A stretch of DNA of 43,886 nucleotides from an uncultured Opitutaceae bacterium (lineage in GTDB: Bacteria; Verrucomicrobiota; Verrucomicrobiia; Opitutales; Opitutaceae). The position numbers were made by a program, and so were the translations under genes. The stretch covers positions 1-43,886 of the forward strand of contig CAZKDK010000002.1 of the NCBI GenBank assembly GCA_964551145.1, in the 5' to 3' direction. Below the pieces are notes generated by a model. That model was not told the origin of the DNA, made no database searches, and worked only from the letters and a program-made list of their open reading frames with translations. Positions 8,973 to 31,410 of this stretch are shown here, piece after piece. Position 1 is the first letter of the stretch. The number at the start of each line of letters is the position of its first letter.

Positions 8973-8995
8973 ATGCCTGGGGCCCGCCGGGCACG

Positions 8996-10560: not shown

Positions 10561-10777
10561 GCAGGGGGGCCTATCCGCGGGGTCCGCACCGAGGGGTGTG
10601 GCCGACGGATCGCTCGGAAGCATGAGGCAGGCGGGGCATGGATTCACGCCAATTACCAAGGACAGCCCGCGACGACAGACCCGCTACTCGGTCCGACAAG
10701 AATTCCACCGGGTCCGGCGGGCATCGGCGCGCCGACGCCCCGCCACCGGCCCGGAGGGCAAATTGCACGGTTCCGGC

Positions 10778-13871: not shown

Positions 13872-13943
13872 GGGGGGGAGGGCGCGGGGAGTGGCGGGCG
13901 GCGCCGGGTGATCACCCCGGTTTCGGCCGTCCGAACGGCCGGT

Positions 13944-15653
13944 TCACCCCGCGGGTGCCGCTGCCGGCGGCGTGGTCGGCGGGCGGGCGGCCCGGGAAAA
14001 AGACCGCCAGTCGGTCCCGACATCCCAGAAGACGGCGATGACAAACAGCAGCAACATCGGGTAGGCGGAATCCAAATACGTGACCGACAGGCTGGGGAAT
14101 GAGGTGATGTGGACCAGCGCCCCCAGCAGCACGATCGCCGCGCAGGCGCCCCAGGCCGCGGCGGCGAGCACAATCGGGAATGTGAGCCGGCGCTGCCAGA
14201 CCAGGTGCCCGGCTCGCAGGAATGCGACAAGCTGCGCAGCGATCGCGAGCCAGAGCAGGATGTGGCGGAGTACCTTGCCGATCATCTGGAGGACGGACAG
14301 CTTCCAGCTGTCAAGAGCCCCTTGACGGGGCAGCGGCGGATCCAGCGCCGGCGACGGGGCGAGGTTGTCGCGCGACAGGTCGAGGAAGATCTGGAGGGCG
14401 TCGTGATCCCCGATGCTCGCCGGCGGGTAGGCGCTGAAACCGCGGAATGACACCAGGAAATCCGTGAACTCAACCGTCGCCGCGAGCCATTCCCGGGTGA
14501 GTCCGGCGCGCCAGGGCGGCAGGAATCCGCTGCGCCGCGGACCCGCCAGAATCCGGCCGTCGTCGCACGCCTGGTTCACTTCCATGGCGAGCCGGTGGTA
14601 GAACGCCATCGCCTGATCGGCATCATGGCAATATCCCGCCGCCTTCACGGAATCGCGCAGCGCCCACATGAACCAGCCGCCGCCGATCTGGCGCTCCTCC
14701 GAGGGGATGTGGGTGACGAAGCTCGAGGCCCCGGCCCAGCCTTCGCCGATGGGGCCATCGAGGTGGGGACGCAGCAGGGCGAACGTCGGGCTCACCGGAT
14801 AGGCCGCCTCGCGCATCTGCCGCGTGACGGGCACAAAGGGGAGATCGGGACCGGCCCGGACGCGGAGGAGCGCGCCGTAGGCGTCCTTGAATTCGCTGCT
14901 GCGGAACTCCACCGTTCCGAACCAGCCGTAGTGGCGGGCGTTCTCCGCGCACACGATGAACATCGGCACCGCGGCGCACACCAGCGCCAGGCCGCCCGCC
15001 CAGGCCATCGGCCGCCTGGGCACGGGCCGCGCCCGCACGAGGGCCACGACAACGGCCCCGGCCAGCAGCACGACGCTCGGGACGATCCAGACGACGTCCT
15101 CGCGGGTCATCCAGAGCGCCGCGAAGGCGGCACCGAAGAGGGCGGCCCACGGCGCGAGCCGCCGGAAGGGCCCGGCCCGGCGCGCGTACAGGGCGATCAA
15201 GCCGGCGAAGATGAGCAGGGCCAGCGGCGTGGAGATGTGCTGGCGCAGGACCCGGCCGAGCGACGAGGCCTCGAACGACATCGGATTCCAGAGCAGCACC
15301 GCATAGACCGCGAGGCGCGCCCCGCCGCCGCGCACCAGCGGGGCGAGGGCCCGGACGACCGCGGCGCAGGCGCCGGCGTAGGCGAGCTGCTGGGCGAAGC
15401 CGAGCGGCAGCCCGAGGAGAAAGACGAACGCGATCCACAGCGAATAGAACGGGCCCTTGGCCAGCGTGAGCTGGTTGTAGGGGCCGAGCCAGTCGCCGCT
15501 GACGAGCGCATTCGCCAGGTTCATGAACAGGCGGTCGTCGTGTTCGGCGGTGCCGATGGCGAAGATGGCCTGGCCGCGCGTCAGCCAGAGTTTGGCGAGA
15601 GTCAGGGCGATCGCCGCCCAGATCCACCAGCGGTTTTTCCACGAGGCGCTCAT
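13944..15653 (-). CDS. Polytopic membrane protein with a large extracytoplasmic domain, putative GtrC/GT-C-like transferase
   Basis: Start is the ATG at 15653-15651 (MSASWKNRWWIWAAIALTLAKLWL). It overlaps the TGA of the upstream GT2 gene (15652-15650), giving ATGA. An acidic first-loop motif is present (IGTAEHDDRLFMNLANAL). It has ~6 N-terminal TMs, a soluble middle domain and C-terminal TMs. The 259 upstream codons of ORF 13944..16430 are out-of-frame shadow of the GT2 gene. Confidence 0.65.
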   Translation of the reverse strand: MSASWKNRWWIWAAIALTLAKLWLTRGQAIFAIGTAEHDDRLFMNLANALVSGDWLGPYNQLTLAKGPFYSLWIAFVFLLGLPLGFAQQLAYAGACAAVVRALAPLVRGGGARLAVYAVLLWNPMSFEASSLGRVLRQHISTPLALLIFAGLIALYARRAGPFRRLAPWAALFGAAFAALWMTREDVVWIVPSVVLLAGAVVVALVRARPVPRRPMAWAGGLALVCAAVPMFIVCAENARHYGWFGTVEFRSSEFKDAYGALLRVRAGPDLPFVPVTRQMREAAYPVSPTFALLRPHLDGPIGEGWAGASSFVTHIPSEERQIGGGWFMWALRDSVKAAGYCHDADQAMAFYHRLAMEVNQACDDGRILAGPRRSGFLPPWRAGLTREWLAATVEFTDFLVSFRGFSAYPPASIGDHDALQIFLDLSRDNLAPSPALDPPLPRQGALDSWKLSVLQMIGKVLRHILLWLAIAAQLVAFLRAGHLVWQRRLTFPIVLAAAAWGACAAIVLLGALVHITSFPSLSVTYLDSAYPMLLLFVIAVFWDVGTDWRSFSRAARPPTTPPAAAPAG

Positions 15654-16840
15654 TGCGGGTCCTTGCGGGTGTCGAGCCGGAGCATGTTGAGGAAGAAATT
15701 GGTCATGATCACCTGGCAGCCGAGCGTGAGGCTGAGCGCGCCGGGAATCACCCAGCGCAGCATCTGGCCGGGAACCAGGGGTCCGAATCCGCGCTGGCGC
15801 CAGAGCCAGACGGAAAACACGGACAACCCCAGCCCGGCCGCGACGAGGATCAGTCCGGCAATCGTGCCCGTCTCGAGGGTGACGATCCGGAGCCACCGGG
15901 CGAAGCGCGCATCGGGGGAGCGCAAACCGGCCTGGATCGCGAAGAATTTGGCCAGCACGGAGAACGCGACCGCCTGGAAGCCGACGAGCACGGCGATCGC
16001 CGCGAAGAGCAGCGTGTTGATGTCGAACTCGACGCGGCCGACCCGGAAGGGGCCGGGGAGCAGGGCCGCCCCTGCCAGCAGGCCGGCGGCCATCAGGACG
16101 AGGCCGGGATAGAGGAACAGCCAGCGCGGGCTGAACAGGAGCATGAATCGCAGGTGGCGCCAGCCATCGCGCCACGGCCGGAGATGGGGGGGGCGGCCGC
16201 GGCCGTCCGGCCGCAGCACCGAGGGCACCTCGGCGATGCGCAGGCCGAGCAGCGAGGCCTTGATGATCATCTCCGTGGCGAACTCCATCCCGGTCGTCCG
16301 GAGATCCATCCGCCGGTAGGCCTCGGCCGAGAATCCCCGCAGGCCGCAGTGAAAATCGCCGACCGGCGTGCGGAACAGGCGCCGGCCGATCCAGGACAGG
16401 AACGGATTGCCCAGATAGCGGTTCTTCCACGGCATGGCGCCGTCCGCGATGCCGCCGCGGAACCGGTTGCCCATGACGAGGTCGCTGCCGCCGCGCAGCT
16501 TCTCGACGATCAGCGGAATCTGCCCGAAATCGTAGCTGGCGTCCGCGTCACCCATGACGACGAACCGCCCGCGCGCGGCCGCAATACCGGCCCGCAGGGC
16601 GTTGCCGTAGCCGCGTGGCGCGACAGCGACGACGGTCGCCCCTTCCCGGGCGGCGATCGCCGGTGAATCGTCCGTGCTGCCGTTGTCGGCGACCACGATC
16701 TCGGCGGCGATCCCGCCGTGGCGGACCGCCGTCGTCGCCTCCCGGATGCACGCCGCCAGCGTGCGGGCCTCGTTGAGGCAGGGCAGCACCACCGTGAGTT
16801 CCGGACGCGGGCCGGCGGCGGCATCTAGAGGGGCGGACAT
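15650..16840 (-). CDS. Family-2 glycosyltransferase with C-terminal 4-TM domain (polyprenyl-phosphate sugar synthase type, GtrB/ArnC/DPM1-like)
   Basis: Start is the ATG at 16840-16838 (MSAPLD..); the track start at 16873 is a GTG. Motifs are LTVVLPCLNEARTL, IVVADNGSTDDS, GYGNALRAG and VVMGDADASYD (DxD). Four hydrophobic helices follow (WLFLYPGLVLMAAGLLAGAALL ...). Confidence 0.85.
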   Translation of the reverse strand: MSAPLDAAAGPRPELTVVLPCLNEARTLAACIREATTAVRHGGIAAEIVVADNGSTDDSPAIAAREGATVVAVAPRGYGNALRAGIAAARGRFVVMGDADASYDFGQIPLIVEKLRGGSDLVMGNRFRGGIADGAMPWKNRYLGNPFLSWIGRRLFRTPVGDFHCGLRGFSAEAYRRMDLRTTGMEFATEMIIKASLLGLRIAEVPSVLRPDGRGRPPHLRPWRDGWRHLRFMLLFSPRWLFLYPGLVLMAAGLLAGAALLPGPFRVGRVEFDINTLLFAAIAVLVGFQAVAFSVLAKFFAIQAGLRSPDARFARWLRIVTLETGTIAGLILVAAGLGLSVFSVWLWRQRGFGPLVPGQMLRWVIPGALSLTLGCQVIMTNFFLNMLRLDTRKDPQ

Positions 16841-16898
16841 GCGGACGCCACCCAAGGGGCAATTCGGGGTCACGACAAGCCTCGTGTGTTTCGCGGCC

Positions 16899-19181
16899 TC
16901 ATCCGGGCCGGGATGCCGGGTCGCCCGGGATTCGCCGCCGGCGGCGCGCCAGCACCGCCGGCAGCGCGCATCCCGCCAGGCCGAGCGTCGCGGCCAACGC
17001 CAGCACGCGGTGTGTCGGTTCCGCCCGCTCGGCGCGCAGCTGGGCGAGCCAGCGGCGGCCGAAATCCGCGTCGTCGGTGGCCGCCGGCCGCGCGACGCCG
17101 AGCCAGCCGTGTTGTTCCGCGTTGCCGTCGAAGAGGAACAGCGTCGCCTGCCAGTCCCGGAACGCGGCGGCGTCCACCATCCACATGATGACCGCCTCGC
17201 GGGGCTCGGTGGGCGGGACCTCGGCCGCCCGCCACTGCTCCGCGCCAGTCGCCGGGTTCACGAAGCGCCACCGGATCGCGTTGCCCGGCCAGTTGGGCCA
17301 TCCGCTGATCGGCGTCGACAGATACCGGTGCCGCACCGTCGCCGGGTCGCTGCGCAGGATGCCGGTGAATGCGGTGCGTCCCGCCAGGAGCGTGCCGTAC
17401 CAGTACAGGCGCGCGGCGGCGGGCTCCGTCTCCACCGCGCCGACCACGTCCTCCGGCTGGATCCGCCGGTCGGTGTCGCTGTGGAATACGGGGTCGACGA
17501 ACTCGACCTCGTCCGACGCCGGGGAGTAGGCCGCCTGCCAGCGCTGCCGGATGTCGAACAGGAAGGGCTGCGGCCACGCGAGCCAGGCGGCGGCGGCGAG
17601 CGCGGTGCCTCCGCACCAGGCCAGGAACAGCCGCGGCCGGGTCCAGCCGGAGGGGGACGGCGCCGCGGCCGCCTCCGCCGGTGCCGCGCGGGATCCGCCG
17701 GCCAGGACCAGCGCCAGGCCGAGCAGCGCACCGGCGGCCGCCAGCCAGCGGCCGGCCGGCGGCAGCCAGCGGGCGAGCGCGCCCAGGCGCCCGTAATCCG
17801 CGCGCGCCTCGGCGGCCCCGGTTTCCGGCGGAAGGAGGGCGCGGAAGCGGGGTTTGCCCAGCAGCTCGATCACGGTCGGCGGGTAGGTGTAGAGCGTGTC
17901 GCCGATCTTCTCCTGCGAGAGGGTGGCCGGGTCGCCGGTGGCGAGAAACGCGCGGACCGCGGCCAGGTTCTGCGCGTTGACCGCGGGCCGGCGCTCGAGG
18001 TTGTAGAGCGTGTGGCTGGCGGTCGATTCGTGCCAGAGGCCCGTGGCCGAGATGCCGATCCAGACCGCCGCCAGCACGGCGACCGCGGCCCGCCGGGCTC
18101 GGGCGGGTGCGGCCAGCCAGAGCACGCCCAGGCTCGCGGCGTTCACGAGGTAGCCGAGCGCGAGGAAATCGCAGTAGCGAGAGACAAAGCCGGCCGTGTC
18201 GCCTCCGCGTCCGTAGCCGATCGCGGCGGCCTGCGACGCCACCCACAGGCCCACGGCGAGGAGAAAGGCCTCGTGCCCGGTCCCGCGCTGGCGGCCGAGG
18301 CACCGGCCGGCGAAGACCAGGAACGGGAGGTACATCAGGAAGGCCCAGCCGGGGTGGGGCAGCGGCCAGCCGAGCTGCCGCAGGCAGACGTCGAGCGCCA
18401 CCCGCCAGGTGTCGGCGCTGTGCCCGGCGGTGACCGTCAGCGGCGGGGACAGCGCGAAGAACAGGACGGCCCCGAGCGCGGCCAGCGCGAGGCCGGCCGC
18501 GGCCCCGCGGCGGTCCCCCTCCCCGCGCCGCAGGCGCAGCAGGAGGAGCGGCGCGGCGGCGGCGTACGCGAGCACGCCCGAGTGCTGCGTGAACAGCACG
18601 AGAACGCCGGCCAGCTGTCCGATCCACCAGCCGGGCGAGAAGCCCGGCCGGGCGGCGATGCCCCAGAGGTAGACGAGGGACAGGCCGACCTGGAGGAAGA
18701 CGAGCGACTGAATGCCCCACAGGGTGTTCTCCCACGTGAACGGCAGCGCGAGGACGAATCCGGCGAACAGCGCGAAGACCGCGCCGAGCCGGCGGCCGAG
18801 GGCCGGGGCGGCCGTGCCGAGGAACAGCCAGATCGCGGCGCCGTACAGCAGGGCGTTGACGGAGGTCTCGAGCAGGTTGTTCCACTGGCCGTTCAGCCGC
18901 GCCAGGGCGAACGACAGGAGGCGCGTCAGGACGGGCCAATGGTCGTTGAGCGGGGCGAGGAACGCGTTCCATCCCAGGCGGCCGTCCGCCCACGGGCCGA
19001 GCAGGTCGGCGGCCGTGCTCTTCCACTCGTCGCGGAAGGGGAGGATGGTGCCGTACTCATGGATCAGCTCGAGCCGCCCGCCCGCGGCCAGCAGCGCGCC
19101 GGCAAGGGCGGCCAGCAGCCACCAGCCGCGCCCGCGCCCGGCGGCGTCCGGGGGCGTCACTTGATCTCGATGTCCGTCCAT
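16899..19181 (-). CDS. Large polytopic membrane protein (760 aa) with soluble C-terminal domain and terminal TM + Arg5 tail; putative GT-C-like
   Basis: Start is the ATG at 19181-19179 (MDGHRDQVTPP..GWWLLAALAGALLAAGG). An in-frame GTG at 19160 would instead give a GTGA overlap with the upstream stop. An acidic first-loop motif is present (ILPFRDEWKSTAADLL), followed by many TMs. The protein ends ..AEPTHRVLALAATLGLAGCALPAVLARRRRRIPG. The rest of ORF 16899..21827 is shadow of the next gene. Confidence 0.65.
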   Translation of the reverse strand: MDGHRDQVTPPDAAGRGRGWWLLAALAGALLAAGGRLELIHEYGTILPFRDEWKSTAADLLGPWADGRLGWNAFLAPLNDHWPVLTRLLSFALARLNGQWNNLLETSVNALLYGAAIWLFLGTAAPALGRRLGAVFALFAGFVLALPFTWENTLWGIQSLVFLQVGLSLVYLWGIAARPGFSPGWWIGQLAGVLVLFTQHSGVLAYAAAAPLLLLRLRRGEGDRRGAAAGLALAALGAVLFFALSPPLTVTAGHSADTWRVALDVCLRQLGWPLPHPGWAFLMYLPFLVFAGRCLGRQRGTGHEAFLLAVGLWVASQAAAIGYGRGGDTAGFVSRYCDFLALGYLVNAASLGVLWLAAPARARRAAVAVLAAVWIGISATGLWHESTASHTLYNLERRPAVNAQNLAAVRAFLATGDPATLSQEKIGDTLYTYPPTVIELLGKPRFRALLPPETGAAEARADYGRLGALARWLPPAGRWLAAAGALLGLALVLAGGSRAAPAEAAAAPSPSGWTRPRLFLAWCGGTALAAAAWLAWPQPFLFDIRQRWQAAYSPASDEVEFVDPVFHSDTDRRIQPEDVVGAVETEPAAARLYWYGTLLAGRTAFTGILRSDPATVRHRYLSTPISGWPNWPGNAIRWRFVNPATGAEQWRAAEVPPTEPREAVIMWMVDAAAFRDWQATLFLFDGNAEQHGWLGVARPAATDDADFGRRWLAQLRAERAEPTHRVLALAATLGLAGCALPAVLARRRRRIPGDPASRPG

Positions 19182-21520
19182 GCCGTCCAATCCCATCCGT
19201 TGTCGTGGTGGGGCCCGGGATCGATCTCCAGGCGGAGCTGGCCGCCCGCGACGCCGCCCAGGTCGGCGCGGAACGGGTGGAGGCCGCGGTCGGCGGGATT
19301 CTCCCGCGGCTTCAGCTCCTGCGAGAAGAGCACGGCCTGCTCGCTGCCGCGGTCCCACACGACGCGGAACACGGCGCCGTCGGTCCGGCCCTCCAGGTAG
19401 GCGCCCGCGACGTAGCCGAAGGCGCCGGAGATCTCGCGCGCCCCGCGCGGCACCACGAACACCATCTCGCTCGGCGCATGCAGCACCTCGGCCTTGCGGC
19501 CGTCGATCTCCGCCTCGTTCGGCGCGGCGAAGGCCTGGAAGCTGACGGGGCAGGTCTTGAACATCCAGAACTGCTCCTGGAGCGTGTGCTGGTAAAAGGC
19601 CGCGCCCGCGGTCGAGGGGGTCACGGCGAAGAAGCTGATCCGCGCGCGCGCGGCGAAATACTTCCGGTCCCCCCGCGCCACCGCGACCGTGATGCGGCGG
19701 ACCCACCGGTCGGGCCTGCCGCCGGCGAAGTTCACCAGGTCGGTGACGTCGTTGACGACCGGGTTGAGCATGAAACCGGTCCGGCCCTGGCCGGGCGGCA
19801 GGCGGAACTCGGTGCGGGCGCCGTCCTGCTGTTCGATCACCAGCTGCACGAGCGGCGCCTTGTAGACCAGGTCGCGCAGGCGGCCGAGCCAGGAGTACTC
19901 GAGATCGATCGTCGCCCACACGTGGCGGTCCGCCAGGTCGCCGAGCTCGCAGGGCGCGTTCAGGGCGGTCGCCACGGTGCGGATACGCCGCGGCTCGAGC
20001 GCGGCCCGGTCGGGCGGGGCGGCCCGGCGGCGCCAGAGCTGGAAGCCCTTTTCCGCGAACTGGTACTCGTAGTCGTGGACCAGGAGGTTGAGCAGCCGGG
20101 AATCGTCGAACGCGGCGAGGCGCCCGTCGATGGTCTCGACCTTGAGCAGGACGAATTGCGGGGCCTGCGCCGAGGCGTAGAAGTCCTCGTTGAGCCGGGC
20201 GAGGCCGGGCGTGTAGGCGGAGTAGCTCTGGAAGACCGGCCGCGGGTGGTAGTTGAGTCCGTTGAACAGCGCGAACGCCTGCTCGTAGCCGATCACGTCG
20301 ACCGTGGCCTGCCCCACGGTCTTGCGCACCCGGGGCAGGTCCGCCACCTGCCGCTGTTCGCGCAGCCGCTCGTCGAAGCTCCGGCGGAAGCTGCCCCAGT
20401 GGAGCGCGTGGCTGACATTGTCCCAGAGCTTGTCCTGCATCTGGCTGCCGGCGTACCGGACCACGCCGGGCAGGGCGTCGTAGGTTCCCGCCACGCAGAG
20501 GATCCCGGCCGGCACGAGCAGCGCCCGCTGCAGGCGGCGCCACCGGAGGCCGTCGGCCAGCAGCGCGGGGAACCCGACGACCGGCAGGAGCGCGCAGAAG
20601 AAGAAGCCGATCATGTGGCCGTCGGCCCGGACGAATCCGTGCTTCCAGTTGAGGTAGATCAGGGCGGCGAGGATGCCGCCGTTGGCCAGCGCGCGCGGCC
20701 GGTCCGGATGGCCCCACACGTACAGGACCGCGTAGACGACGAGCAGGACCAGGACGGTCACGCCCTTCCAGAACGCTTCGGGCGGCGTCGACAGTCCCAT
20801 GGCCTCCTGGTAGCCGCTGCTGACCTCCAGCGAGGTCAGGAGGTACCGGGGGAGGTTCAGCGGATTCTGCCCGCAGAGAATCCACACCGCCAGGTAGCCG
20901 CCGGCGAACCAGAGGGCGAGCTGGAGGGCCGCCCGGCGCCGCCCCAGCGCCAGCGCGTGCAGGCCCGCGGCCGCCACGCAGACCGCCGCCAGCATGAGGT
21001 TGGTGAACTTGACGATGGCGAGCAGCGCCAGCAGCAGCGCGAGACACGCGCTGTCGGCGTGGACCGCCTTGTCGGTGCGGCGCACCAGCTCCCAGCCCGC
21101 CAGGGCGATGGCGATCATGTGCAGGGCGTCCTCGTAGGTGACGCCGAGCAGCACGAAGAAGATGAAATAGACGGCCCGTCCCGTCCCGCGCAGGTCGCGG
21201 GCCCCGGCCATGATGAGGCCGGCGAACACCATGGCCGAGAGGACCTGCCAGAGCACCAGGCTGCCGAACTGCAGGCCCGAATAGGTGCGCCCCATCAGGA
21301 ACCCGAGGGGACCGTAGGTGAACACGATGTCGCGCCCCATCTGCAGGCCCTGGTGGAAGAACCAGCCCAGCGCCATGCGCCACGAGGCGTCGAGGTCCGG
21401 CAGCGGATAGCGCGGCAGCGTGACGATGGCCGTCGCGAGGAGAAGCCAGAGCAGGAAGCTGCCCAGCCGGCCTCCGGAGGCGGGGACAGGGCCGGCCGGC
21501 GACGTCGAGTCGGAGGGCAT
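19157..21520 (-). CDS. Polytopic membrane protein (787 aa) with soluble domain and one C-terminal NPCBM-like module
   Basis: Start is the ATG at 21520-21518 (MPSDSTSPAGP..LGSFLLWLLLATAIVTL). The first loop is LPDLDASWRMALGWFFHQGLQMGRDIVFTYGPLGFL, followed by ~12 TMs. The C-terminus is ..VLHAPSEMVFVVPRGAREISGAFGYV..GRTDGAVFRVVWD..LFSQELKPRENPADRGLHPFRADL..GGQLRLEIDPGPHHDNGWDWTAWTDIEIK. Confidence 0.75.
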   Translation of the reverse strand: MPSDSTSPAGPVPASGGRLGSFLLWLLLATAIVTLPRYPLPDLDASWRMALGWFFHQGLQMGRDIVFTYGPLGFLMGRTYSGLQFGSLVLWQVLSAMVFAGLIMAGARDLRGTGRAVYFIFFVLLGVTYEDALHMIAIALAGWELVRRTDKAVHADSACLALLLALLAIVKFTNLMLAAVCVAAAGLHALALGRRRAALQLALWFAGGYLAVWILCGQNPLNLPRYLLTSLEVSSGYQEAMGLSTPPEAFWKGVTVLVLLVVYAVLYVWGHPDRPRALANGGILAALIYLNWKHGFVRADGHMIGFFFCALLPVVGFPALLADGLRWRRLQRALLVPAGILCVAGTYDALPGVVRYAGSQMQDKLWDNVSHALHWGSFRRSFDERLREQRQVADLPRVRKTVGQATVDVIGYEQAFALFNGLNYHPRPVFQSYSAYTPGLARLNEDFYASAQAPQFVLLKVETIDGRLAAFDDSRLLNLLVHDYEYQFAEKGFQLWRRRAAPPDRAALEPRRIRTVATALNAPCELGDLADRHVWATIDLEYSWLGRLRDLVYKAPLVQLVIEQQDGARTEFRLPPGQGRTGFMLNPVVNDVTDLVNFAGGRPDRWVRRITVAVARGDRKYFAARARISFFAVTPSTAGAAFYQHTLQEQFWMFKTCPVSFQAFAAPNEAEIDGRKAEVLHAPSEMVFVVPRGAREISGAFGYVAGAYLEGRTDGAVFRVVWDRGSEQAVLFSQELKPRENPADRGLHPFRADLGGVAGGQLRLEIDPGPHHDNGWDWTAWTDIEIK

Positions 21521-21552
21521 GGGGTGAAGTCTGGAGTCGGGCGGACGGGGGT

Positions 21553-24000
21553 CTAGCGGGAAGTGTCGGCCTGGAGATCGGTCCAGAAGGTCCAGTCGGA
21601 GGCGCCGTTGCCGGCGGGGCCGGTGGTGATGACGAACTCCAGCGTGCTGCCGGCCGGATGCGGCGGCAGGTCCACCGAGAAGGTGTGCACGGGCCGGTCC
21701 TCCGGGTGATCCCGCGGCCGCAGCAGGTGATGGTAGAGGACGACCCGCTCGCCCCGCCGGGGCACCCAGGCCACGAGAAACTCGGCGCCGTCCGTCGGGG
21801 CCGGATTGTCCTGCGCGTACGCGCCATCGCGGAATCCGAAGCCGCCCTGGACCCGCAGGACCTGGTCGGGCAGGCGATAGCTCAGGAGGGAGGGCGCATG
21901 CAGGAAGATCAGCCGGTGGCCCTTGCCCTCCTCGACCAGCGGCTTGAAGGGGGTCTGGATGGTGAGCGGCTGCAGTCCGCTCGTCACGCACGGCAGGCGG
22001 TAGGCGGCCATTTGCTCCGGGGGCACGGCGGCCGCCGCGCAGGTGACGTCCAGCACCGGGCTGTCGCGAAACCTGCCGCTGGCGGTGACGGCCCGGGCGG
22101 ACACCCGGTAGCGGCCGGGGCCGAGTTGGCCAAAGGGGGCGACGAACTGGATCGTGATCTTGCCGGTCGGCTGGAAGCTGGCGGAGTCAACCACGGCGTC
22201 GTTCACCCTCAGTTCCAGGCGCTGCAGGCGGGCGGCCGGGTCGTTTCCGACGATGACAAAGGGCGTCGGCTCGGGCCCGGCCTGGGGCGCCCCGATGAGT
22301 TCGGCGGGCGCCGGGTCGCCCGCCGGTCCGCCCGCGAGGGCCACCGGCGTCCGCCGCGCGGCGTCGCGGATCAGGTGGAGGCGGAACCCCTGGGGGACGA
22401 ACTGGCCCGACTCGGCCTCGACGTAGTTGCGGGCGACGAACGATTCCAGCCGCGGGAACAGGTTCAGCGGATATTTGTGGAAATTGCGGTGAGGGCCGGG
22501 GCTGCAGTCGACGAAGAACGCCGGGCGCCGGGCGTCGAGCTCGGCCAGCAGGGTCTGCATCGTCCCGGGGACGATCGCGTAGCTGGTGTCCCGGCCGGGC
22601 TCCATGTTGGTCCAGGGGATGAGGCCGGTTTGGAACGAGCAGTAGGTGAAGCGCGAGGCCGGGCGGCGGTTGGCGTAGAGATAGATGTCCGGATTGTAGC
22701 CCCAGACGAAGATCCGTTCGCGGGGGGTCGTGAGCGCGTCGATGAACGCGCACGCGCGCATTGCCGGATCGTGCGGGTACTCGTCGTGCCCCCGGTTGGC
22801 GAGCGGGCTGATGATCAGGCTGAGCGCGGTCGCGCCGAGTCCGAGGAAGATCAGGACCGCGGCCGCGCCCGCCGATCGCGAGCGGTCCGGACGCAGGACC
22901 AGCCGGCGCGCGAGCGAGCCCGCGGCGGCCAGCAGTTCGCCGGCGCAGAGGGCAAACGCGGGCAGGCACTGGATGTAGTAGTGTTCAAAGCCCCGGCCGC
23001 TGGCCGCGGCGCCCGCCAGCGACGTCGCGTTCCAGGCGAGGAGATAAAAGACCCAGGGCTGGGTCGCGCGTTCCTCGGGGGTCGGCCGCAGCTGCGCCAC
23101 GCGGAGCAACAGGGCGCCGGCGCCGCCGGCCAGCGCGGCCAGCACGAGCGGGTAGCGCTCCCACAGCCGCCAGAACGGGATGTAGTTCATCACCAGATGC
23201 TGCATGCCCGCGACGTCGGCCCCGTAGTAGAGCAGGTTGTAGGTGCAGGTATAGAAGACCATGTCGCCGAAGGCGCCGTGGAGGGCGAACCAGGCGCACG
23301 AAACGGCGTTGACCACGAGGAAGCCCAGCAGGATGCCGGCGACACCGTGGAACGCGGCGCGCCAGGGCTTCCGGCCCGTGACGGCGAGGAAACCGAGCGT
23401 GAGCAGGGGCGCGGCCAGGTCCACCAGACCCGGCTGCTTCGAGAGCGCGGCGAGGGCGAACAGGCCGCCGGTGATCGCGGGGGCGACGAAGCCGGCCCGA
23501 TCCAGCGTCCGCCAGAACCACCAGGTCCCCGAGGTCGTGAACAGGATCACAAACCACTCGGTATTGGCCGAGTTGCCGTCGGCCGAATAGAGCAGGTTGG
23601 TGGTCAGGGCGCAGAAGACGAGCGTGGCCCAGCCGCCCGCCACGCGGTTCCGGGTGCGGCTTCCGATCAGGAACACGCCGAGCGCGGTGCCGGCGATCAT
23701 CGCCGCCACGACGGCGCGCACGGCCCACAGGTTGTTCTCGCCGCAGAGGCCGAAGATCCCGGCGACGGCATAGTAGGTGAGCGGCGTTCGCTGGTCGACG
23801 GCGTCGCGGTAGAGCACGCCGCCGTGGAGGAGGGTTCGGGCGGCGGCTGCGTGGATCGCCTCATCGACGTTCCACAAAGGCACGCCCAGGGTCGGCCAGC
23901 GGAGGAAGAGGATCCATCCGAGCAGCACGGCGAAAAGCGCGAGGATGATCGCGGACGGCCGGCGGAAGCGGCGGGTGGCAGGCGACGGCGGGGATTCCAT
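21553..24000 (-). CDS. ArnT/PMT-like GT-C glycosyltransferase (815 aa) + Ig-like domain + one C-terminal NPCBM-like module
   Basis: Start is the ATG at 24000-23998 (MESPPSPATRRFRRPSAIILALFAVLLGWILFL). The GT-C-style first loop is LGVPLWNVDEAIHAAAARTLLHGGVLYRDAVDQRTPL, followed by many TMs. The soluble part includes RIFVWGYNPDIYLYANRRPASRFTY. The C-terminus is ..FLHAPSLLSYRLP..GGFGFRDGAY..TDGAEFLVAW..LYHHLLRPRDHPEDRPVHTFSVDLP..GSTLEFVITTGPAGNGASDWTFWTDL. Confidence 0.8.
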   Translation of the reverse strand: MESPPSPATRRFRRPSAIILALFAVLLGWILFLRWPTLGVPLWNVDEAIHAAAARTLLHGGVLYRDAVDQRTPLTYYAVAGIFGLCGENNLWAVRAVVAAMIAGTALGVFLIGSRTRNRVAGGWATLVFCALTTNLLYSADGNSANTEWFVILFTTSGTWWFWRTLDRAGFVAPAITGGLFALAALSKQPGLVDLAAPLLTLGFLAVTGRKPWRAAFHGVAGILLGFLVVNAVSCAWFALHGAFGDMVFYTCTYNLLYYGADVAGMQHLVMNYIPFWRLWERYPLVLAALAGGAGALLLRVAQLRPTPEERATQPWVFYLLAWNATSLAGAAASGRGFEHYYIQCLPAFALCAGELLAAAGSLARRLVLRPDRSRSAGAAAVLIFLGLGATALSLIISPLANRGHDEYPHDPAMRACAFIDALTTPRERIFVWGYNPDIYLYANRRPASRFTYCSFQTGLIPWTNMEPGRDTSYAIVPGTMQTLLAELDARRPAFFVDCSPGPHRNFHKYPLNLFPRLESFVARNYVEAESGQFVPQGFRLHLIRDAARRTPVALAGGPAGDPAPAELIGAPQAGPEPTPFVIVGNDPAARLQRLELRVNDAVVDSASFQPTGKITIQFVAPFGQLGPGRYRVSARAVTASGRFRDSPVLDVTCAAAAVPPEQMAAYRLPCVTSGLQPLTIQTPFKPLVEEGKGHRLIFLHAPSLLSYRLPDQVLRVQGGFGFRDGAYAQDNPAPTDGAEFLVAWVPRRGERVVLYHHLLRPRDHPEDRPVHTFSVDLPPHPAGSTLEFVITTGPAGNGASDWTFWTDLQADTSR

Positions 24001-24017
24001 GGCGGAGCGGTGGGCGA

Positions 24018-27000
24018 TCAGGGCGCGCCGATGAAGTTCGCCCAATAGGCCCAGTCGAATGCGTTGCTGTTGCGGGGGCCGGGCCCGATGATGAACAGGA
24101 GACGGCCGGGAAGGTCCGGCGGCAGCTCAACCCGGGCGCTCTGGCGGCCCCGGTCGTTCGGATTGGTGCCCGGAGTCAGCTGGCGATGGAAGAGGGTCGT
24201 CACCGCGCCGCTGCGATCCTGGAACTTCACGAACACGTCGACGCCGTCGGTGCGCCGGCCCGGTTCGGGATTGGCATAGCTGCCAGGTTCGAGGCCGTAG
24301 CTGAAGGAAACGGCCTCGAGGGCCGGCGGCCGGTCATAGATCAGCCGCGAGGGTGCGTGGGCGCCCCAGACATCCGTGTCGGTCTGCTGCATCCCGAGGC
24401 CATTGAAAGTTTCGCTTTCGACCGGCACGAGGATACGGCCGCCCCAGACGATGTCCGGTCCCGGACCCTGCGCCCGGAGATCGCCGAGGTAGGCCCAGTC
24501 GAAGGCGGTGTTGCTCTTGGGCCCGGGTCCGACCCGCACGATGATGCGGCCCGAGTTCTCCAGGGGCAGCTTGACCCGGGTGGTCTGCGGACCGCGGTCG
24601 CCCGGATTGTTGCGGGGATCCATCAACCGGTCGAAGAGGCGCTCCAGACGAAGGTCGGGATGCTCGAATTCCACGACGATCTCGATGCCGTCCGACCCGG
24701 TCCCGCGGGCGGGGTCGTAGGCATGCTCGTCGAGCCCGTACGTGAAGATGAGCGAGCTCATCCCGGAAACGTAGGGGTAGACCAGCTTGGCGGGACTCTG
24801 GGCGCTCCAGCGTCCCTGTTCGAGGGGCTCCATCGGGCGGCCGTCAAACATTTCGCCGGTGACCGCGGGGATCCGTTTTTCGCCGTAGCGCAGGTCGGGC
24901 CCCACGCCCTGGCCGCCGAGATTCGCCCAGTAGGTCCAGTCGAACGCCGGGTCGTTCATGGGGCCGGGCAGAAACTGGAGGATGAGCCGGCCGCTCTTGT
25001 GCGGGGGGATGTCGACCTGGCTCGTCTGGCGCCCCTGATCGGGGCCGATGGCCTTCGGATTCAGGCGGCGCCAGAAAAGCTGGGTGACGCCGCCGTCCGC
25101 CCGCTCAAAGCTGATGACCACATCGGCGCCCGTGGTGCCGTCGCCCTGCGGCCGGTTCTCGTACGCCTCGCGGTCGACGCCATAGCTGAAGGTCAGCTTC
25201 TTCAGGTCGGGCGGGCATTCGTACACGAACCGGGATGGCGCGTGCGCCTCCCACCGCGGGCCGTTCTTGTCCTCCTCGAAACCCACGCCGCCCTCGAGGG
25301 TGCCGCCCTCGACGGGCAGCAGGATCCGGTCTCCGAGCTTGATGCGCGGGCCGGTGAGCGGCTCCGGCGGCGGAGGCTGGCGGCAGAGCGCGAGATCTAC
25401 GGGACGGCTGACGTGCCAGCCGTCGGTCCGCCGGACCGCCGCGCGGAACCCGGTGTCGCTGCCGGCCAGGTCCGCGCGATCGACGAAGAAGCCGGCGTCG
25501 CAGGGCCGGGTCGCCGGATAGACCAGCCGGCGGTAGGGCCGGTCGCCCTGGTAGATGACGATCTCGTCCGCGCCGGCGGGGGCCTTCACCTCCAGCACGG
25601 GCAGGCGGCCGCCGTGAACGGTCAGGGTGACGGCGACCTTGATCCGGTCGTCTTCGGGAGTGGACGCCGCCAGGGGGCCGGCCGGGAGCGGGGCGAGGCG
25701 GCGGTAGAGCTTCATCCCGGAGTTCTGGGTCGCCCCATAGTCGACCAGCGCGAAATCGCGCGTGACCAGGGTCCAGAGGCTGTCCTGCCGGTAGAGCGGA
25801 TACTTGAGGTAGCCGCGCAGGTTCAGCGTGTCGGCGATGAGGGCGGGCGGATGCCGGTCGAGGTCCTCCCGCAGGCGCTCCCAGGATCCCGGAACGACGG
25901 CGTACCGGGTGTCGACGAGCAGGTCCAGGTTGGTCCAGGGAATCATGCCCGTCAGATAGTTGGTGTAGATGAACCGCGTGCTGGGCAGGCGCTGGCTGAA
26001 GAAATACAGTTCCGGCTCATAGCCCCACACGAAGATGCGGTCCGCCGGCGCCGTGTACTCGCGCACCAGCAGGCCCATCGCCTTCGTGCCGTCGTCCTGC
26101 GGGGAGAACCTCAGGCTGCGCCGCCGGCAGTCGAAGCCGGTGACGACCACCGCGACCGCGAGGAGCCCCGCTCCGGCCGCGGCCAGGCCCGGGCGGCCGC
26201 GGCGCAGGGCCGCCACCTGCTCGAGCAGCCGGGCGACGGTCCATCCGCAGGCCAGGCTCAGGCCCGGAATCACCTGGGCGCTGTAATGCGAGAACTCGCG
26301 CCCGCTGATGACGGTGGAGACCAGCCCCGCGGCGGTCGCGCCCAGGATCAGCCAGGGCAGGAGGGGCGCCGCCGCCGGCCGCTGCCGCAGGTCGCGCCAG
26401 ACGCGCCGGAGCAGGAGGATCGCCGCCGCCACGCCGGCCACCAGCGCCGCCGGCATGTTCTCCCGGAGGAGCCGGAAGGGGATCCGCACGGCCCACAGGC
26501 GCTCCCAGAGCGGGACTTCGGGCACGTAGTACTTCGTGTTGTAGGTCCAGGCATAGAACCGCAGATCGTCGATCGCCCGGTTGGCGGCGAAATACGCGAT
26601 CATGCCGGCCATGATGATGGCGAAGCCGGCGAGTTCTCCCGCCCCGAGGCTGAGGCAGGCCCGGCGCCGGTCGGAGCGCGTCCACGCGAGGAGGCCGGCG
26701 AGGACCAGGGTCACGCCCAGGTCGAGCACGCCGGGCTGCTTGCAGAGGGCCGCCAGTCCGAAGCAGGCCCCGACCGCCGCGCCCCGCCAGAAACCGGGGC
26801 GGGCCTGGGCGGCGGCGAACCCCCAGTAGCCGGCGACGGAGAAGAAGACCACGAACCAGCCCGTGTGCGCCGACAGCGTGTCCGGCACTCCCAGCATGAG
26901 GAAGGTGAGGAGCGAAAAGAAGACCGCGGCGGCGATGCCCGCCTTCTCATCGCCGAGGCGGCGGGCGGTCAGCCAGAGCAGCACGGCGCAGGCGCCGAGC

Positions 27001-27263
27001 ATCAGGGCGACGGCCCCGTGCACGGCGCGCGCGTTCCATTCGCCGCACACGGCGAACACCGCCGCCTTCAGGTAGGGCACGAGGGGACTGCGGTTGTCGG
27101 CGGCATCGCGATAGATGACGCCGCCGTGCAGCACTTCCTCGCCCATGGTGAACGTCGAGCCCTCATCCAGGTTCCAGATGGCGCGCGGCAGCCAGGGGGC
27201 GCGGAGCCCGAAGGCTCCGACGACCAGGACCAGCGCGAACAGCGGTCTCCAGATCTTGGACAT
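24018..27263 (-). CDS. ArnT/PMT-like GT-C glycosyltransferase (1081 aa), paralog of 21553..24000, + Ig-like domain + three tandem NPCBM-like modules
   Basis: Start is the ATG at 27263-27261 (MSKIWRPLFALVLVVGAFGL). The first loop is PRAIWNLDEGSTFTMGEEVLHGGVIYRDAADNRSPL, closely parallel to the previous gene. RIFVWGYEPELYFFSQRLPSTRFIY is also shared. The three C-terminal repeats are listed as a separate feature. Confidence 0.85.
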   Translation of the reverse strand: MSKIWRPLFALVLVVGAFGLRAPWLPRAIWNLDEGSTFTMGEEVLHGGVIYRDAADNRSPLVPYLKAAVFAVCGEWNARAVHGAVALMLGACAVLLWLTARRLGDEKAGIAAAVFFSLLTFLMLGVPDTLSAHTGWFVVFFSVAGYWGFAAAQARPGFWRGAAVGACFGLAALCKQPGVLDLGVTLVLAGLLAWTRSDRRRACLSLGAGELAGFAIIMAGMIAYFAANRAIDDLRFYAWTYNTKYYVPEVPLWERLWAVRIPFRLLRENMPAALVAGVAAAILLLRRVWRDLRQRPAAAPLLPWLILGATAAGLVSTVISGREFSHYSAQVIPGLSLACGWTVARLLEQVAALRRGRPGLAAAGAGLLAVAVVVTGFDCRRRSLRFSPQDDGTKAMGLLVREYTAPADRIFVWGYEPELYFFSQRLPSTRFIYTNYLTGMIPWTNLDLLVDTRYAVVPGSWERLREDLDRHPPALIADTLNLRGYLKYPLYRQDSLWTLVTRDFALVDYGATQNSGMKLYRRLAPLPAGPLAASTPEDDRIKVAVTLTVHGGRLPVLEVKAPAGADEIVIYQGDRPYRRLVYPATRPCDAGFFVDRADLAGSDTGFRAAVRRTDGWHVSRPVDLALCRQPPPPEPLTGPRIKLGDRILLPVEGGTLEGGVGFEEDKNGPRWEAHAPSRFVYECPPDLKKLTFSYGVDREAYENRPQGDGTTGADVVISFERADGGVTQLFWRRLNPKAIGPDQGRQTSQVDIPPHKSGRLILQFLPGPMNDPAFDWTYWANLGGQGVGPDLRYGEKRIPAVTGEMFDGRPMEPLEQGRWSAQSPAKLVYPYVSGMSSLIFTYGLDEHAYDPARGTGSDGIEIVVEFEHPDLRLERLFDRLMDPRNNPGDRGPQTTRVKLPLENSGRIIVRVGPGPKSNTAFDWAYLGDLRAQGPGPDIVWGGRILVPVESETFNGLGMQQTDTDVWGAHAPSRLIYDRPPALEAVSFSYGLEPGSYANPEPGRRTDGVDVFVKFQDRSGAVTTLFHRQLTPGTNPNDRGRQSARVELPPDLPGRLLFIIGPGPRNSNAFDWAYWANFIGAP
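24021..25352 (-). repeat. Three tandem ~145-aa coding repeats (NPCBM-like modules): 24915-25352, 24471-24902, 24021-24464
   Basis: R1 is GPRIKLGDRILLPVEGG..WEAHAPSRFVYECPP..LTFSYGVDREAY..GADVVISFE..LFWRRLNP..PDQGRQTSQVDIP..GRLILQFLPGPMNDPAFDWTYWANL. R2 is GPDLRYGEKRIPAV..WSAQSPAKLVYPYV..LIFTYGLDEHAY..DGIEIVVEFE..LFDRLMDP..PGDRGPQTTRVKLP..GRIIVRVGPGPKSNTAFDWAYLGDL. R3 is GPDIVWGGRILVPVE..WGAHAPSRLIYDRPP..VSFSYGLEPGSY..DGVDVFVKFQ..LFHRQLTP..PNDRGRQSARVELP..GRLLFIIGPGPRNSNAFDWAYWANF. Confidence 0.85.
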
Positions 27264-27333: not shown

Positions 27334-30300
27334 TCAGGCGTCGGCGAGGAAGGCTTCACGGGCCAGGTCCGCGTGATCGGGCAGCACCTTGAGGTAATCA
27401 TAGTAGCGCAGGGCCTTGGAGTAGGCCGTGGGCGTCAGCGACTTTCCGCTGCGTTCCTTGGCGAGGCAGGTTCGCATCATGCGGGACAGGCCCTCGACGT
27501 CGCCCGGCGCCACGAGGTAGGCCTCGGCGCGCTGGCGCACCATTTCCGGGATGCCGTGCACGTCGGTCGTGACGATGGGCGTGCGAAAGGCCATGGCCTC
27601 GAGGACGACGCGCGGGAACGACTCCTCGTAGCTCGTGCAGACGAAGAGATCGCTCAGCTGGTAGAAGTCGAACGCGTCGCGCGTCTCGGGCACCAGGGTG
27701 AGATTGGCGAGGCCGAGGCGCGCGATGTCGGCCGTGAGCAGGTCGAGGTAGATGCCGGGGCGCGCCCCGACGAGGACGAACCGGGCGGGCGTCCGCCCCG
27801 GGCGGTCGTGGTGGTTGAAATGATCGATCGCGCGGATGAAGACGTGCTGGCCCTTGCGCTCGCAGACCGTGCCGATGTTGGCGATCACGACGTCGTCGTC
27901 GCGGAACCCGTGCTTCCGTCGCAGCTCCGCCCGGGTGTGGCCGGCCCGGAACGCCTCGATGTCGTCGATGCGGATCCAGCTCGAGACCAGCCGGAAGTTG
28001 TCGTTGACGTTGTAGTCCTCGTAGTAGGCGCGCGTGGCGCGGCAGAGGAAGAGCGCGCGCGTGGCCTCCCGGAACGCCTGCGCCACCAGCCCGTGGAGCG
28101 GCAGGGGGAGCATCCGCTCGAAGAACCGGAAGATGGAGGTGCTCTCGTGGATGTAGAAGAGCGAGGGCCGGCCGGCCTGGCGCGCCAGGTGGACGCCCCA
28201 GAAGTTGACCAGCGTGTTGCACACGACGAGGTCGATCCGGTCCATCGGCAGGCGCGCGCGCACCTCCGCGACGCGCTCGGCGAACTGCGCCTCCGACCCG
28301 GCGGAGCAGAGCCGGTGGCGGTCCACCAGCGTGATGGGGGCGCCCAGCGCCTCGAAGGCGCCGCGCAGGGGGCCATCCTCGCACGCGACCACCTCGATCC
28401 GCCAGCCCGCCTCGCGCACCAGCCAGGTGGCGTATTCGAGCAGGAAGAGCGGCGAGCCCTCGAGATTGAGGTTGTGCGTGATCAGCAGCAGGCGGAGCGC
28501 GCCCACGCGCGCAGTGTGGCCGCAGACCGCGCCGCGGCAGCGCACGGCGTGGTCGACCAGTTCGAGGTGGGGGCTGCAGAACGGGTCGCGGGGGCGGGGG
28601 TACTTGCGCACGAACGCGATGTGCTCCGCCTCGTCGAACGTCACCCCCCGCGTGGCGCTGCCCCAGTGCATCAGCCGGGCCTGCGGCGTGTAGATCACCC
28701 GGTGGCCGGCCGCGCGCACGCGCTGGCAATAGTCCACGTCGTTGTAGGCCACCCCGAAATCCCGCTCGTCGAACCCGCCGAGCTCCCGGAACAGCCGGGT
28801 GCGCGTCATCAGGCACGCGCCGGTCACGGCGGACACCTCCCGGGCCAGGGCGTGCCACTCCACGGCCGCCACGTCCCGCGGGTGCCGCCGCAGAAAGGCC
28901 GTGTCGGCGAGCCCCCCGTGCGGACCGAGGATGATGCCGGTGTGGTTGAGGGTCTTGTCGGGATAGAGCAGCTGGGCGCCGGCGACGCCCACGTCGGGCA
29001 GCGTGAACCAGCCGGTCAGTTCCTCGAGCCAGCCGCGGGCGAGGGCGTTGACGTCGTTGTTGAGGTGCAGCGCCAGCGGCGTGTCGACCGCCGCCATGGC
29101 CCGGTTGACCAGGTGCGAATAGTTGAAGGGCGCGCGCGGATCCTCGGGGCGGACCACCGAGCACATCAGGTCCGTGCGGCGCGCGATCGCCTCGAGGTAG
29201 CGGACGGCGTCGGGGTCCCGCGAGGTGTCGTCCACGATGAGGAGCTTGACGTACCGCCAGTCGACGGTCTCGTCGAGCAGCTCGATGCATTCCTGCAGGA
29301 GGTGCAGCCGGTCGCGCGTGGGGATGACGATGGTCACCTGGAGGCGCGAAAGGATCTTCGGGTCCCACTGGAGCTGGTGGCAGCGGAGCTTCCGCTGGTG
29401 GGCCGCCTCCGGCAGGAACGGATCGGCCGCCGCGGCCCGGCGCCGCAGGGCGTCGGCCAGGGCCAGGCGCGCCTGCTCGACCGAAGGATCGGCCGGCTCC
29501 ACGCCGCGCGGCGCCCCGGCGCGCGCGTGATGGCAGACGAACGGAACGTGCGCCACCTGGTCGGCGCCGAGCCGGTCGCCGAGGCGCAGGAGCAGGTCGT
29601 ACCAGGGCACGGCCGCGAACGCCGCGCGGAAGGAACCCAGCTCGACGAAGCGGTCGCGCCGCACGACACACAGGTCGCCGGGAAACAGGCCGGAGAGCGC
29701 CAGCGCGGGGCTCCACTCGGGCCTGAATGCGGGTTCGGACCGGGCGCCGGCGTCGTCCATGCGGTCCCCGTCGGTGTAGACCAGCTCGAGGCCGGGCGCG
29801 GACGCCAGGCGCTCCGCCACGTGCAGGAGCGCGTCGGGCGGGAGGCGCGCGCCGGCTGCGAGGAGCGCGAGCTGGGTGCCGGTGGACTGGTGGGTGGCGG
29901 CGTTGAGTGCGCGCACCCGGTCGGCGGGTCCGGCGCAGACCTCGTGGCGGACGCGGGCGTTACCCGCGCCGGCCGCCGGCGCGTCGCCGGGGCCGACGAT
30001 CCAGGCTTCCCAGAGCGGGTACAGCTGCGCGTGAAGCGAGGCCAGCAATCCGTCGAGCCCGGCCGGGCCGTCGACGGCATCGACCAGCAGGGTGAAGCGC
30101 GGCCCGGCGGCCCCCAGCGCCGCGGCCGATGCCTCCATGGCCTGGCGCAGGCGCGGCGTCAGCCGGTTCGCCTGCTGCCAGGCGTCGTAGGGCTCCGCCG
30201 ACACCCGCGCGAGGTGTCCCAGGCTGGCCGGCGCCTTGCGCTGGTATTCGCTCCAGGCGGTCCGCACTCCGCGCCAGAACTCCCGCAGCGACCCGTGGCG

Positions 30301-31230: not shown

Positions 31231-31410
31231 GCCGCGCGGGGAGGGAGTGGGGGTGGCGAGGCTTGTAGCCGATTCCATGCGCCCGGACAAGCGCCGCCTG
31301 CAACGCCGGTTGATTCAATCATCGCTCCGTAGATCTCCGGCGCCCGCCGGTTCACCGTCGTGGCCAGCTGGCTCTTCATGAATGCGCCGTGAGTGTCACG
31401 GAAATCGGCG

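Follow-up and report, generated by a model that had tools for sequence, protein, structure and literature searches.

Organization of the Locus

We analysed a stretch of 43,886 nucleotides from an uncultured Opitutaceae bacterium (GenBank assembly GCA_964551145.1, contig CAZKDK010000002.1, positions 1 to 43,886 of the forward strand), called the window below, whose G+C content is about 71% and whose minus strand holds nearly all the genes. The window is a cell-surface glycan biosynthesis cluster; within it, three consecutive minus-strand genes for membrane proteins, which we call A, B and C, end in copies of one and the same module, a beta-sandwich of about 135–145 amino acids (aa). Gene C (24018..27263) codes for a 1081-aa protein with three C-terminal modules, predicted to be a glycosyltransferase (GT) of the GT-C type, PMT_2/GT39-like. 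Gene B (21553..24045) reaches 830 aa as the longest open reading frame (ORF), or 815 aa if the ATG at 24000 is taken as the initiation codon; its product is a GT-C paralog of C with a single module. Gene A (19157..21520) codes for a polytopic membrane protein of 787 aa, identical to P0268, which also has one module and belongs to a family that differs from that of B and C, with a weak GT-C/DUF2029-like character.

Five Copies of One Module

The modules were first proposed in an initial annotation made from the sequence alone. We trained a hidden Markov model (HMM) on 107 modules from other organisms, with none of the window's own copies among them, and ran this external-only model against all six-frame ORFs of the window; as only modules of other organisms went into the model, circularity is excluded. 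The model detected five domains and no more, each of them encoded on the minus strand and lying within about 25 nt of the coordinates first proposed, which confirms the observation, and no other ORF of the window scored. Gene A contributes the module at 19160-19564 (independent E-value, i-E, 9e-40) and gene B the one at 21556-22002 (i-E 1.3e-40, envelope 21565-21984). The three copies of gene C follow one another as C1 (aa ~638-785, 24909-25352; i-E 1.4e-41, matched 24909-25328), C2 (aa ~788-932, 24468-24902; i-E 4.4e-40, matched 24468-24881) and the terminal copy C3 (aa 934-1081, 24021-24464; i-E 8.6e-46, matched 24024-24440). Position 19160, from which the module of A had been counted in the initial annotation, is the last sense codon of that gene.

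Compared pairwise with BLASTP, the five modules share 27-46% identity (E 2e-10 to 3e-41), and their alignment has 12 invariant columns. The motif of C2 is partly degenerate, with QSPA in place of HAPS and an ending DWAYL. A recent triplication within C was considered and rejected, the three copies being just 35-46% identical to one another and the triple array being kept across genera.

A Large Module Family

When the five modules served as queries in a word-indexed search, just 15 metagenomic C-terminal fragments came back. With HMMER, run exhaustively against 1.84 billion cluster representatives, 3382 proteins belong to the family at E<=1e-3; the stricter thresholds of E<=1e-10 and E<=1e-30 leave 1918 and 263 of them, and each protein has one to four matched stretches. 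In a sample of 267 proteins, copies were counted as one (20 proteins), two (133), three (111) or four (3); the position of the module is equally regular, since the last copy ends no more than 30 residues from the C-terminus in 191 of the 193 proteins longer than 700 aa. The architecture, which the initial annotation thought might turn out to be common and annotated already, is indeed common, with thousands of representatives, and carries no annotation in the databases consulted: the module family is currently invisible, its carriers being labelled "hypothetical" or just "GT39".

The family consensus reads H-A-P-S ... G ... A-Y ... T-D-G ... F.V ... L ... R.L.P ... D-R-G.Q ... L-P ... G.L.L ... 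P-G-P ... D-W.Y, so that the motif skeleton earlier drawn from the five window copies (HAPS, AY, TDG, L, P, DRG, LP, G.L, PGP, DW.YW) is that of the family as a whole. In single-copy modules, several positions are near-invariant, namely H (98%), P (93%), D-R-G (97/95/93%) and D-W (98/100%); to judge from the alignment, this polar and aromatic motif looks as expected for a binding site. In tandem arrays the motif positions are relaxed, triple arrays keeping, for example, H in 46-86% and W in 50-100% of the modules; C2 of the window is one such case.

Likeness to NPCBM/CBM51

The initial annotation had likened the module to NPCBM/NEW2 (PF08305), that is, to CBM51, the carbohydrate-binding module (CBM) found on GH98, GH95, GH110 and GH27 enzymes and on M60 peptidases. 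Like our module, it is a beta-sandwich of about 140 aa, and it often occurs in tandem (Sp3GH98, 2ygl; ZmpB, 7js4), as the modules do in C. The Pfam gathering cut-off of NPCBM is 23.9 bits. Taken as isolated modules, A (18.5 bits, E 0.0022, profile positions 44-135 of 137) and C1 (14.1 bits, E 0.047) match the profile below this cut-off and B, C2 and C3 do not match it; full-length A, B and C have no NPCBM match in Pfam and NCBIfam scans. Across the family, NPCBM is nevertheless the sole recurring match among 24,736 Pfam models, always colinear with profile positions ~43-136: it is matched by 6 of 20 members at E<=1 (best 1e-4), by 5 of 112 diverse members at E<=0.01 (P0136 at E 0.0014) and by 2 of 89 representatives at E<=5e-5. 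The strongest case is P0146, a protein of 836 aa with three modules, the third of which scores 140 bits against the external module HMM, shares 45% identity over 134 aa with window module A, and reaches 37.4 bits (E 3.2e-9) against NPCBM, above the cut-off. P0146 is, by its sequence, the decisive link between the module family and NPCBM.

The predicted structure points the same way. The AlphaFold2 model of C3 is all-beta (pLDDT 93.6) and, in a Foldseek search of the PDB, it matches beta-sandwich CBMs at E-values of ~1e-4 to 1e-3. The highest TM-scores belong to CBM51 structures, with 0.59 for 7js4 (root-mean-square deviation 3.9 Å), 0.55/0.56 for 2vmg and 0.53-0.54 for 2vng and 2ygl; next in the list come CBM6, CBM22, CBM32, CBM61, the N-domain of GlfT2, MAM and ephrin-receptor domains and the C-terminal CBMs of the mycobacterial Emb proteins. 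With the model of full-length C as the query, the tandem CBM51 pair of Sp3GH98 (2ygl) ranks sixth. According to a secondary description (PMC9513282), the CBM51 binding site is made of a Tyr platform and two His residues.

As NPCBM is the only Pfam family matched, P0146 passes its cut-off and CBM51 superposes best, we consider the module family a divergent branch at the edge of NPCBM/CBM51, which also has extra conserved motifs (T-D-G, D-R-G, P-G-P) setting it apart from NPCBM. The likeness first proposed holds to this extent; because the window copies all fall under the gathering score, they make up a divergent sister branch and not an annotatable NPCBM.

Genes C and B: Fold and Topology

Full-length C matches Pfam PMT_2 at E 5.3e-9 (36.9 bits, cut-off 26.1). 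It has at least 239 homologs; the named ones, from Opitutaceae, Lacunisphaera and Didemnitutus, go by "glycosyltransferase family 39 protein". The homologs fall into length groups of around 1075, 933 and 783 aa, and PMT_2 is their only Pfam annotation, apart from a precomputed PF26974 on P0035. From an alignment of 121 sequences of this family, we built an AlphaFold2 model of full-length C (pLDDT 94.7, pTM 0.84), for which Foldseek returned EmbA/EmbB/EmbC at the top, along with AglB, STT3, PglB, AftA and Pmt4 (E 1.7e-9 to 3e-4); the alignments to GT-C enzymes of the oligosaccharyltransferase type extend beyond the membrane core.

In this model, the first 385 residues (26109..27263) form a GT-C core of 11 membrane helices, with two short helices in the loop after the first transmembrane helix (TM1). 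The segment that follows, aa 386-637 (25353..26108), is assigned from the model's secondary structure and from conserved columns to an alpha/beta domain (aa 392-525) and an Ig-like beta-sandwich (~540-620), after which come the three modules. The alpha/beta domain contains the stretch VWGYEPE, in which W413 and G414 are invariant and Y415, P417 and E418 nearly so. Within the core, D33-E34 is invariant in the 121 sequences and lies in the first periplasmic loop after TM1, as part of an active site predicted to face the periplasm; the other invariant residues are D56, R58, K175-Q176-P177, Y237, Y246, G321, R322, H326 and Y327. Given a cytoplasmic N-terminus, all invariant polar residues of the core sit in predicted periplasmic loops.

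The loop charges agree with this orientation, as every predicted cytoplasmic loop has a net charge of +0.8 to +2.8 over the 121 homologs and the segment after TM11 has −0.5. In the GT-C enzymes PglB, STT3, AglB and Emb, the C-terminal domain is extracytoplasmic and the orientation is established. Taken together, the helix count, the loop charges and the known orientation of GT-C enzymes place the modules in the periplasm, the side on which the initial annotation had also put them: the model predicts that C has its N-terminus in and its C-terminus out, with everything after helix 11 being periplasmic.

B and C had been called clear paralogs, and they are so over their full length (33% identity over 815 aa, E 1e-86). 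B has a VDE motif after TM1 which aligns with the acidic motif of C; in Pfam it has no match above the cut-off, just Mannosyl_trans4 at E 0.049, and its ortholog in Oleiharenicola lentus shares 48% identity with it. Because of this paralogy, the GT-C assignment made from the model of C extends to B, and these two of the three carriers are demonstrably GT-C.

Gene A and Other Module-Bearing Scaffolds

The initial annotation had described all three carriers as glycosyltransferase-like, a description that suits B and C and suits A less well, its membrane domain being a different one with just weak GT-C-like signals. Indeed, A has the module in common with C and nothing else, and it gives no Pfam or NCBIfam match above the cut-off. 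Its family has at least 974 matches in Opitutaceae, including Oleiharenicola lentus and Cephaloticoccus, which are mostly called "hypothetical" and in a few cases "DUF2029 domain-containing protein". When the membrane parts of the A and C families are compared with hhalign, the match is weak (probability 5.8%, E 0.0066) and colinear over 218 columns, with D-L-D of A on L-D-E of C and K-F of A on K-Q of C. A is, thus, probably, though not demonstrably, GT-C-like as well.

To which other proteins is the module attached? We sorted the N-terminal parts of 82 long representatives of the module family into 34 of the A type, 18 of the C type, 14 of the B type, 2 of a fourth type, which is that of a 684-aa Oleiharenicola protein, and 14 left unassigned. 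Among these 14 is P0254 (1173 aa), a GT-C protein of the YfhO type (PF09586), in which the two modules are internal rather than terminal (aa 683-982) and precede the final YfhO segment; the window itself has no YfhO protein. The module can, thus, be inserted in a periplasmic loop as well as appended to a C-terminus, and it travels among GT-C scaffolds. As several unrelated N-terminal types carry it, we see the module as a mobile unit common to several membrane scaffolds.

Genomic Neighbourhood and Conservation

Six polytopic membrane proteins are encoded in a row on the minus strand (12510-27263), and only A, B and C carry the module. The module-less ones are D (16899..19160), E (13944-15653) and F (12510-13871), all on the same strand; E and F have no family assignment, and D, which matches neither Pfam nor NCBIfam, aligns with the C-family core in hhalign (probability 47%, E 2e-4 over 129 columns), so that it is probably another PMT_2-like GT-C. 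All six have an acidic motif shortly after the first TM helix, which reads ADD in F, HDD in E, RDE in D, DLD in A, VDE in B and LDE in C. The TGA stop codon of A and the GTG initiation codon of D overlap as GTGA at 19157-19160, which suggests that both genes are translationally coupled.

Between D and E lies a gene for a GT2 enzyme with C-terminal TM helices (15650..16873, minus strand; Pfam Glycos_transf_2, E 1.4e-21). Its nearest NCBIfam models, all below their cut-offs, are AglJ (127 bits, cut-off 325), dolichyl-phosphate hexose transferase, PpgS and ArnC, and we regard it as a candidate polyprenyl-phosphate sugar synthase which would supply a lipid-linked donor. Upstream of C, the minus strand codes for four very large Leloir glycosyltransferases, a GT2+GT4 protein of 1318 aa (27334-31290), GT4 proteins of 1154 aa (32117-35581) and 748 aa (36367-38613) and a 2xGT2+GT4 protein of 1434 aa (38623-42927), with a small methyltransferase (31411-32037, same strand) among them. 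Long N-terminal regions of these four giants are without a Pfam match, as for about 650 aa of the 1318-aa protein. Downstream of A, the glycan cluster is adjoined by minus-strand genes for an extracytoplasmic function (ECF) sigma factor (9994-10659), a FecR anti-sigma factor (8996-9997) and a TonB-dependent receptor with an STN signalling domain (5543-8974). An epimerase/dehydratase gene is also found downstream of A, and the minus strand further codes for a 1497-aa protein (979-5472) in which nine NHL repeats are combined with an RCC1-like propeller and with Ig domains; this large protein is probably secreted or exposed at the surface.

A comparable order of genes is seen in Oleiharenicola lentus, with a GT4, a GT2+GT4 (1292 aa), three consecutive module-bearing genes (a novel scaffold, the B ortholog at 48% and an A ortholog at 47% identity) and then the sigma/FecR/TonB trio, which in this species follows directly after the module-bearing genes (L001, 12451-17299). 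This recurrence suggests that the trio is a conserved trans-envelope signalling unit, which may regulate the cluster. We then surveyed GTDB species genomes with the C-family alignment and obtained 71 loci, 70 of them titled Verrucomicrobiota or Opitutales and one only "uncultured bacterium"; the taxa are Opitutus, Lacunisphaera, Didemnitutus, Oleiharenicola, Cephaloticoccus, Synoicihabitans and other Opitutaceae or Verrucomicrobia. Among the 69 loci with module-HMM matches, 54 have two to five adjacent module-bearing genes, which with few exceptions share a strand. An array of three, one and one modules in successive genes, as in the window, recurs in many Opitutales genera, so B and C have long differed in their copy number, and the step from one to three copies that the initial annotation had read as an expansion between these two paralogs does not stand as a local event.

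Comparison with Known Glycosyltransferases

C-terminal CBMs are already known on GT-C enzymes, in EmbA/EmbB/EmbC and AftD of mycobacteria and in ORF12, a GT136 enzyme of Citrobacter youngae (PMC3044687; PMC11127046). Like C, the Emb proteins and AftD have a polytopic GT-C core followed by extracytoplasmic lectin-like beta-sandwich domains; EmbA/B/C are the top Foldseek matches of full-length C, and their C-terminal CBMs also match the isolated module. Unlike C, with its 11 TM helices, the Emb proteins have 15, belong to family GT53 and carry CBMs of another sequence family which are not tandem repeats of one unit; a full-length profile search of PDB sequences detects no sequence similarity between the C family and Emb. 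In EmbC and AftD, the acceptor is bound by the CBMs (PMC11127046; PMC3044687), and EmbC with a mutated CBM yields arabinan that is reduced both in amount and in length (PMC11127046, citing PMC3044687).

ORF12 (Kelly et al. 2024, PMC11127046) resembles C in its 11 TM helices, in the C-terminal beta-rich domain after TM11, in its helical periplasmic domain and in the catalytic Asp after TM1, and its C-terminal CBM binds the unmodified O-polysaccharide acceptor (PMC11127046). Unlike C, it belongs to another GT family and has a single Ig-like CBM that is not NPCBM-like. It is part of a three-component system for periplasmic post-polymerisation glycosylation and works with a polyprenyl-phosphate sugar synthase, for which the window has a candidate, and with a MATE or GtrA-type flippase, none of which was identified among the large ORFs of the window.

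Given these precedents, a GT-C enzyme with an acceptor-binding CBM is no novelty in principle. The novelty lies in the module family, in the tandem arrays that it forms and in the several scaffolds over which it is spread. Classical NPCBM modules sit on secreted enzymes that degrade glycans or glycoproteins and bind galactose or blood-group glycans, whereas here the module is found on biosynthetic membrane enzymes. Our literature searches found no description of NPCBM-type modules on glycosyltransferases; C-terminal CBMs as such are established on GT-C enzymes, and only this type of module on them appears undescribed.

A Proposed Role for the Modules and Its Alternatives

The reading that we favour, and that we regard as fairly probable when taken as a whole, is that B and C, and probably A, are GT-C enzymes whose CBM51-like C-terminal modules hold a periplasmic glycan acceptor near the catalytic site. 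In the cytoplasm, the Leloir enzymes would assemble a polymer attached to a lipid carrier; once the polymer is exported, the periplasm-facing GT-C enzymes would extend or decorate it with polyprenyl-phosphate-linked sugars, for which the adjacent AglJ/ArnC-like GT2 is the candidate maker of donors. The modules would bind the exported polysaccharide or another glycan acceptor and keep the membrane catalytic site near its polymeric substrate, and tandem copies may bind a repeating polymer with more avidity or recognise a broader range of epitopes, two ideas that the relaxed motifs of tandem copies fit equally. The modules, their fold and position, the size of their family, the GT-C fold and topology of C and the conserved synteny are observed here; that the modules bind glycan, which ligand they would recognise and any effect on processivity or chain length we infer. 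The control of processivity or product length that the initial annotation had attributed to the modules is possible and, given the precedent of EmbC, a legitimate hypothesis.

One has to keep in mind several results that weigh against this reading. All five window modules stay under the Pfam cut-off for NPCBM. The Foldseek E-values of about 1e-4 are alike for several unrelated beta-sandwich families, and TM-scores below 0.6 are modest. When the family was aligned by hhalign with three solved CBM51 sequences, which a consensus probe had retrieved from the PDB and which make a very thin profile, the probability was 3.1% (E 0.014); an HMM of the same three sequences gave at most 6.2 bits on the modules and 5.1 on reversed controls, and it did not separate the modules from shuffled controls either. 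We, thus, dropped the claimed similarity to these three sequences. Profile searches of the PDB with module alignments of 20 and 112 sequences also returned no CBM51, just chance matches to beta-trefoil designs and SseL, and the search with the full-length C-family profile had no match. On the side of the enzymes, the GT-C nature of A depends on the weak hhalign match given above, and C has a conserved run of arginines, DCRRRSLR (26109-26130, aa 378-385; R.R in the family consensus), directly after TM11 on the predicted periplasmic side, contrary to the positive-inside trend; this stretch may touch the phosphate head groups of lipids. Lastly, the Pfam and NCBIfam matches of the window's large ORFs include no flippase of the GtrA or MATE type and no export system, and ORF12 could do without its CBM in the reported assays (PMC11127046).

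Several of these results would also fit a family of independent origin, CBM-like in its galactose-binding-like jelly roll, whose likeness to NPCBM/CBM51 is convergent or lies in the fold only. This is what one would expect from window modules under the Pfam cut-off, from profile-profile and PDB profile searches without significance and from E-values alike for CBM6, CBM22 and CBM32 with TM-scores of at most 0.59. It accounts less well for NPCBM being the sole recurring model out of 24,736, each time over the same colinear span, or for a member 45% identical to module A that scores 37.4 bits; besides, the hhalign alignment with the solved CBM51 sequences is colinear, with H-A-P-S opposite H-x-x-S-E and D-W opposite D-H-x-x-W/F. 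We, therefore, consider a purely fold-level likeness unlikely.

Whatever their origin, the modules might not be lectins; they could be structural spacers, or docking units that join neighbouring membrane enzymes in a periplasmic complex. Indeed, neighbouring genes code for at least three or four unrelated scaffolds that all carry this module, its copy number of one to four is ruler-like, motif conservation is relaxed in the tandem copies, and the Foldseek list includes protein-binding beta-sandwiches such as MAM and the ligand-binding domain of ephrin receptors. Yet the nearest sequence family and the best-superposing folds are carbohydrate-binding modules, the near-invariant H, D-R-G and D-W of single-copy modules look like a ligand site, and all known CBMs on GT-C enzymes bind glycan (PMC11127046), so that we find such a role quite improbable.

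We are just as doubtful that B and C act as protein O-glycosyltransferases or lipid glycosyltransferases, in the manner of PMT or ArnT, with modules that recognise glycoprotein or lipid-linked substrates or previously attached glycans. Protein mannosyltransferases and ArnT do belong to PMT_2, the structures matched by C include Pmt4, and the window codes for a secreted-type protein of 1497 aa with NHL, RCC1 and Ig repeats. The genes, however, lie amid giant GT2/GT4 enzymes, a methyltransferase and sugar-nucleotide enzymes, a setting typical of polymer synthesis and conserved in Oleiharenicola, and the top structural match, Emb, is a polysaccharide GT-C with CBMs.

A cytoplasmic C-terminal region, with modules that have no access to the exported glycan, is suggested by DCRRRSLR directly after the last hydrophobic helix of C, but we reject it as highly improbable on the helix count and the family-wide charge bias, since eleven helices and an invariant DE loop outside put the C-terminus outside, the charges fit at every loop with a net negative segment after TM11, and all structurally matched GT-C enzymes have an extracytoplasmic C-terminal domain.

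Significance for Opitutales Surface Glycans

Carbohydrate-binding modules have been catalogued almost wholly from glycan-degrading enzymes, with few cases (Emb, AftD and GT136 ORF12) on extracytoplasmic membrane glycosyltransferases. The family described here, thousands strong, puts an NPCBM/CBM51-like module, in one to four copies, on several GT-C scaffolds of one bacterial order. In this, our finding extends a known principle; the mechanism is no surprise, and the family merits description as a CBM family.

A bolder proposal, which we put forward tentatively and hold to be doubtful, is that unrelated GT-C scaffolds (PMT_2-, DUF2029- and YfhO-like, and at least one unassigned) each captured the same module within a periplasmic assembly or decoration line of the Opitutales, conserved as three, one and one copies, where the modules would read the polymer and set the order, processivity or chain length of its synthesis, thereby forming a new CBM family specific to biosynthetic and not to degradative enzymes. 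If true, this would amount to a modular "reader" common to a team of membrane "writers". Should the modules, as our favoured reading has it, bind the nascent polymer, they would offer a tractable system for learning how glycosyltransferases outside the cytoplasm locate a polymeric acceptor and remain on it; CAZy would gain a candidate family or sub-family of CBMs, and the surface-glycan loci of Verrucomicrobiota could be better annotated.

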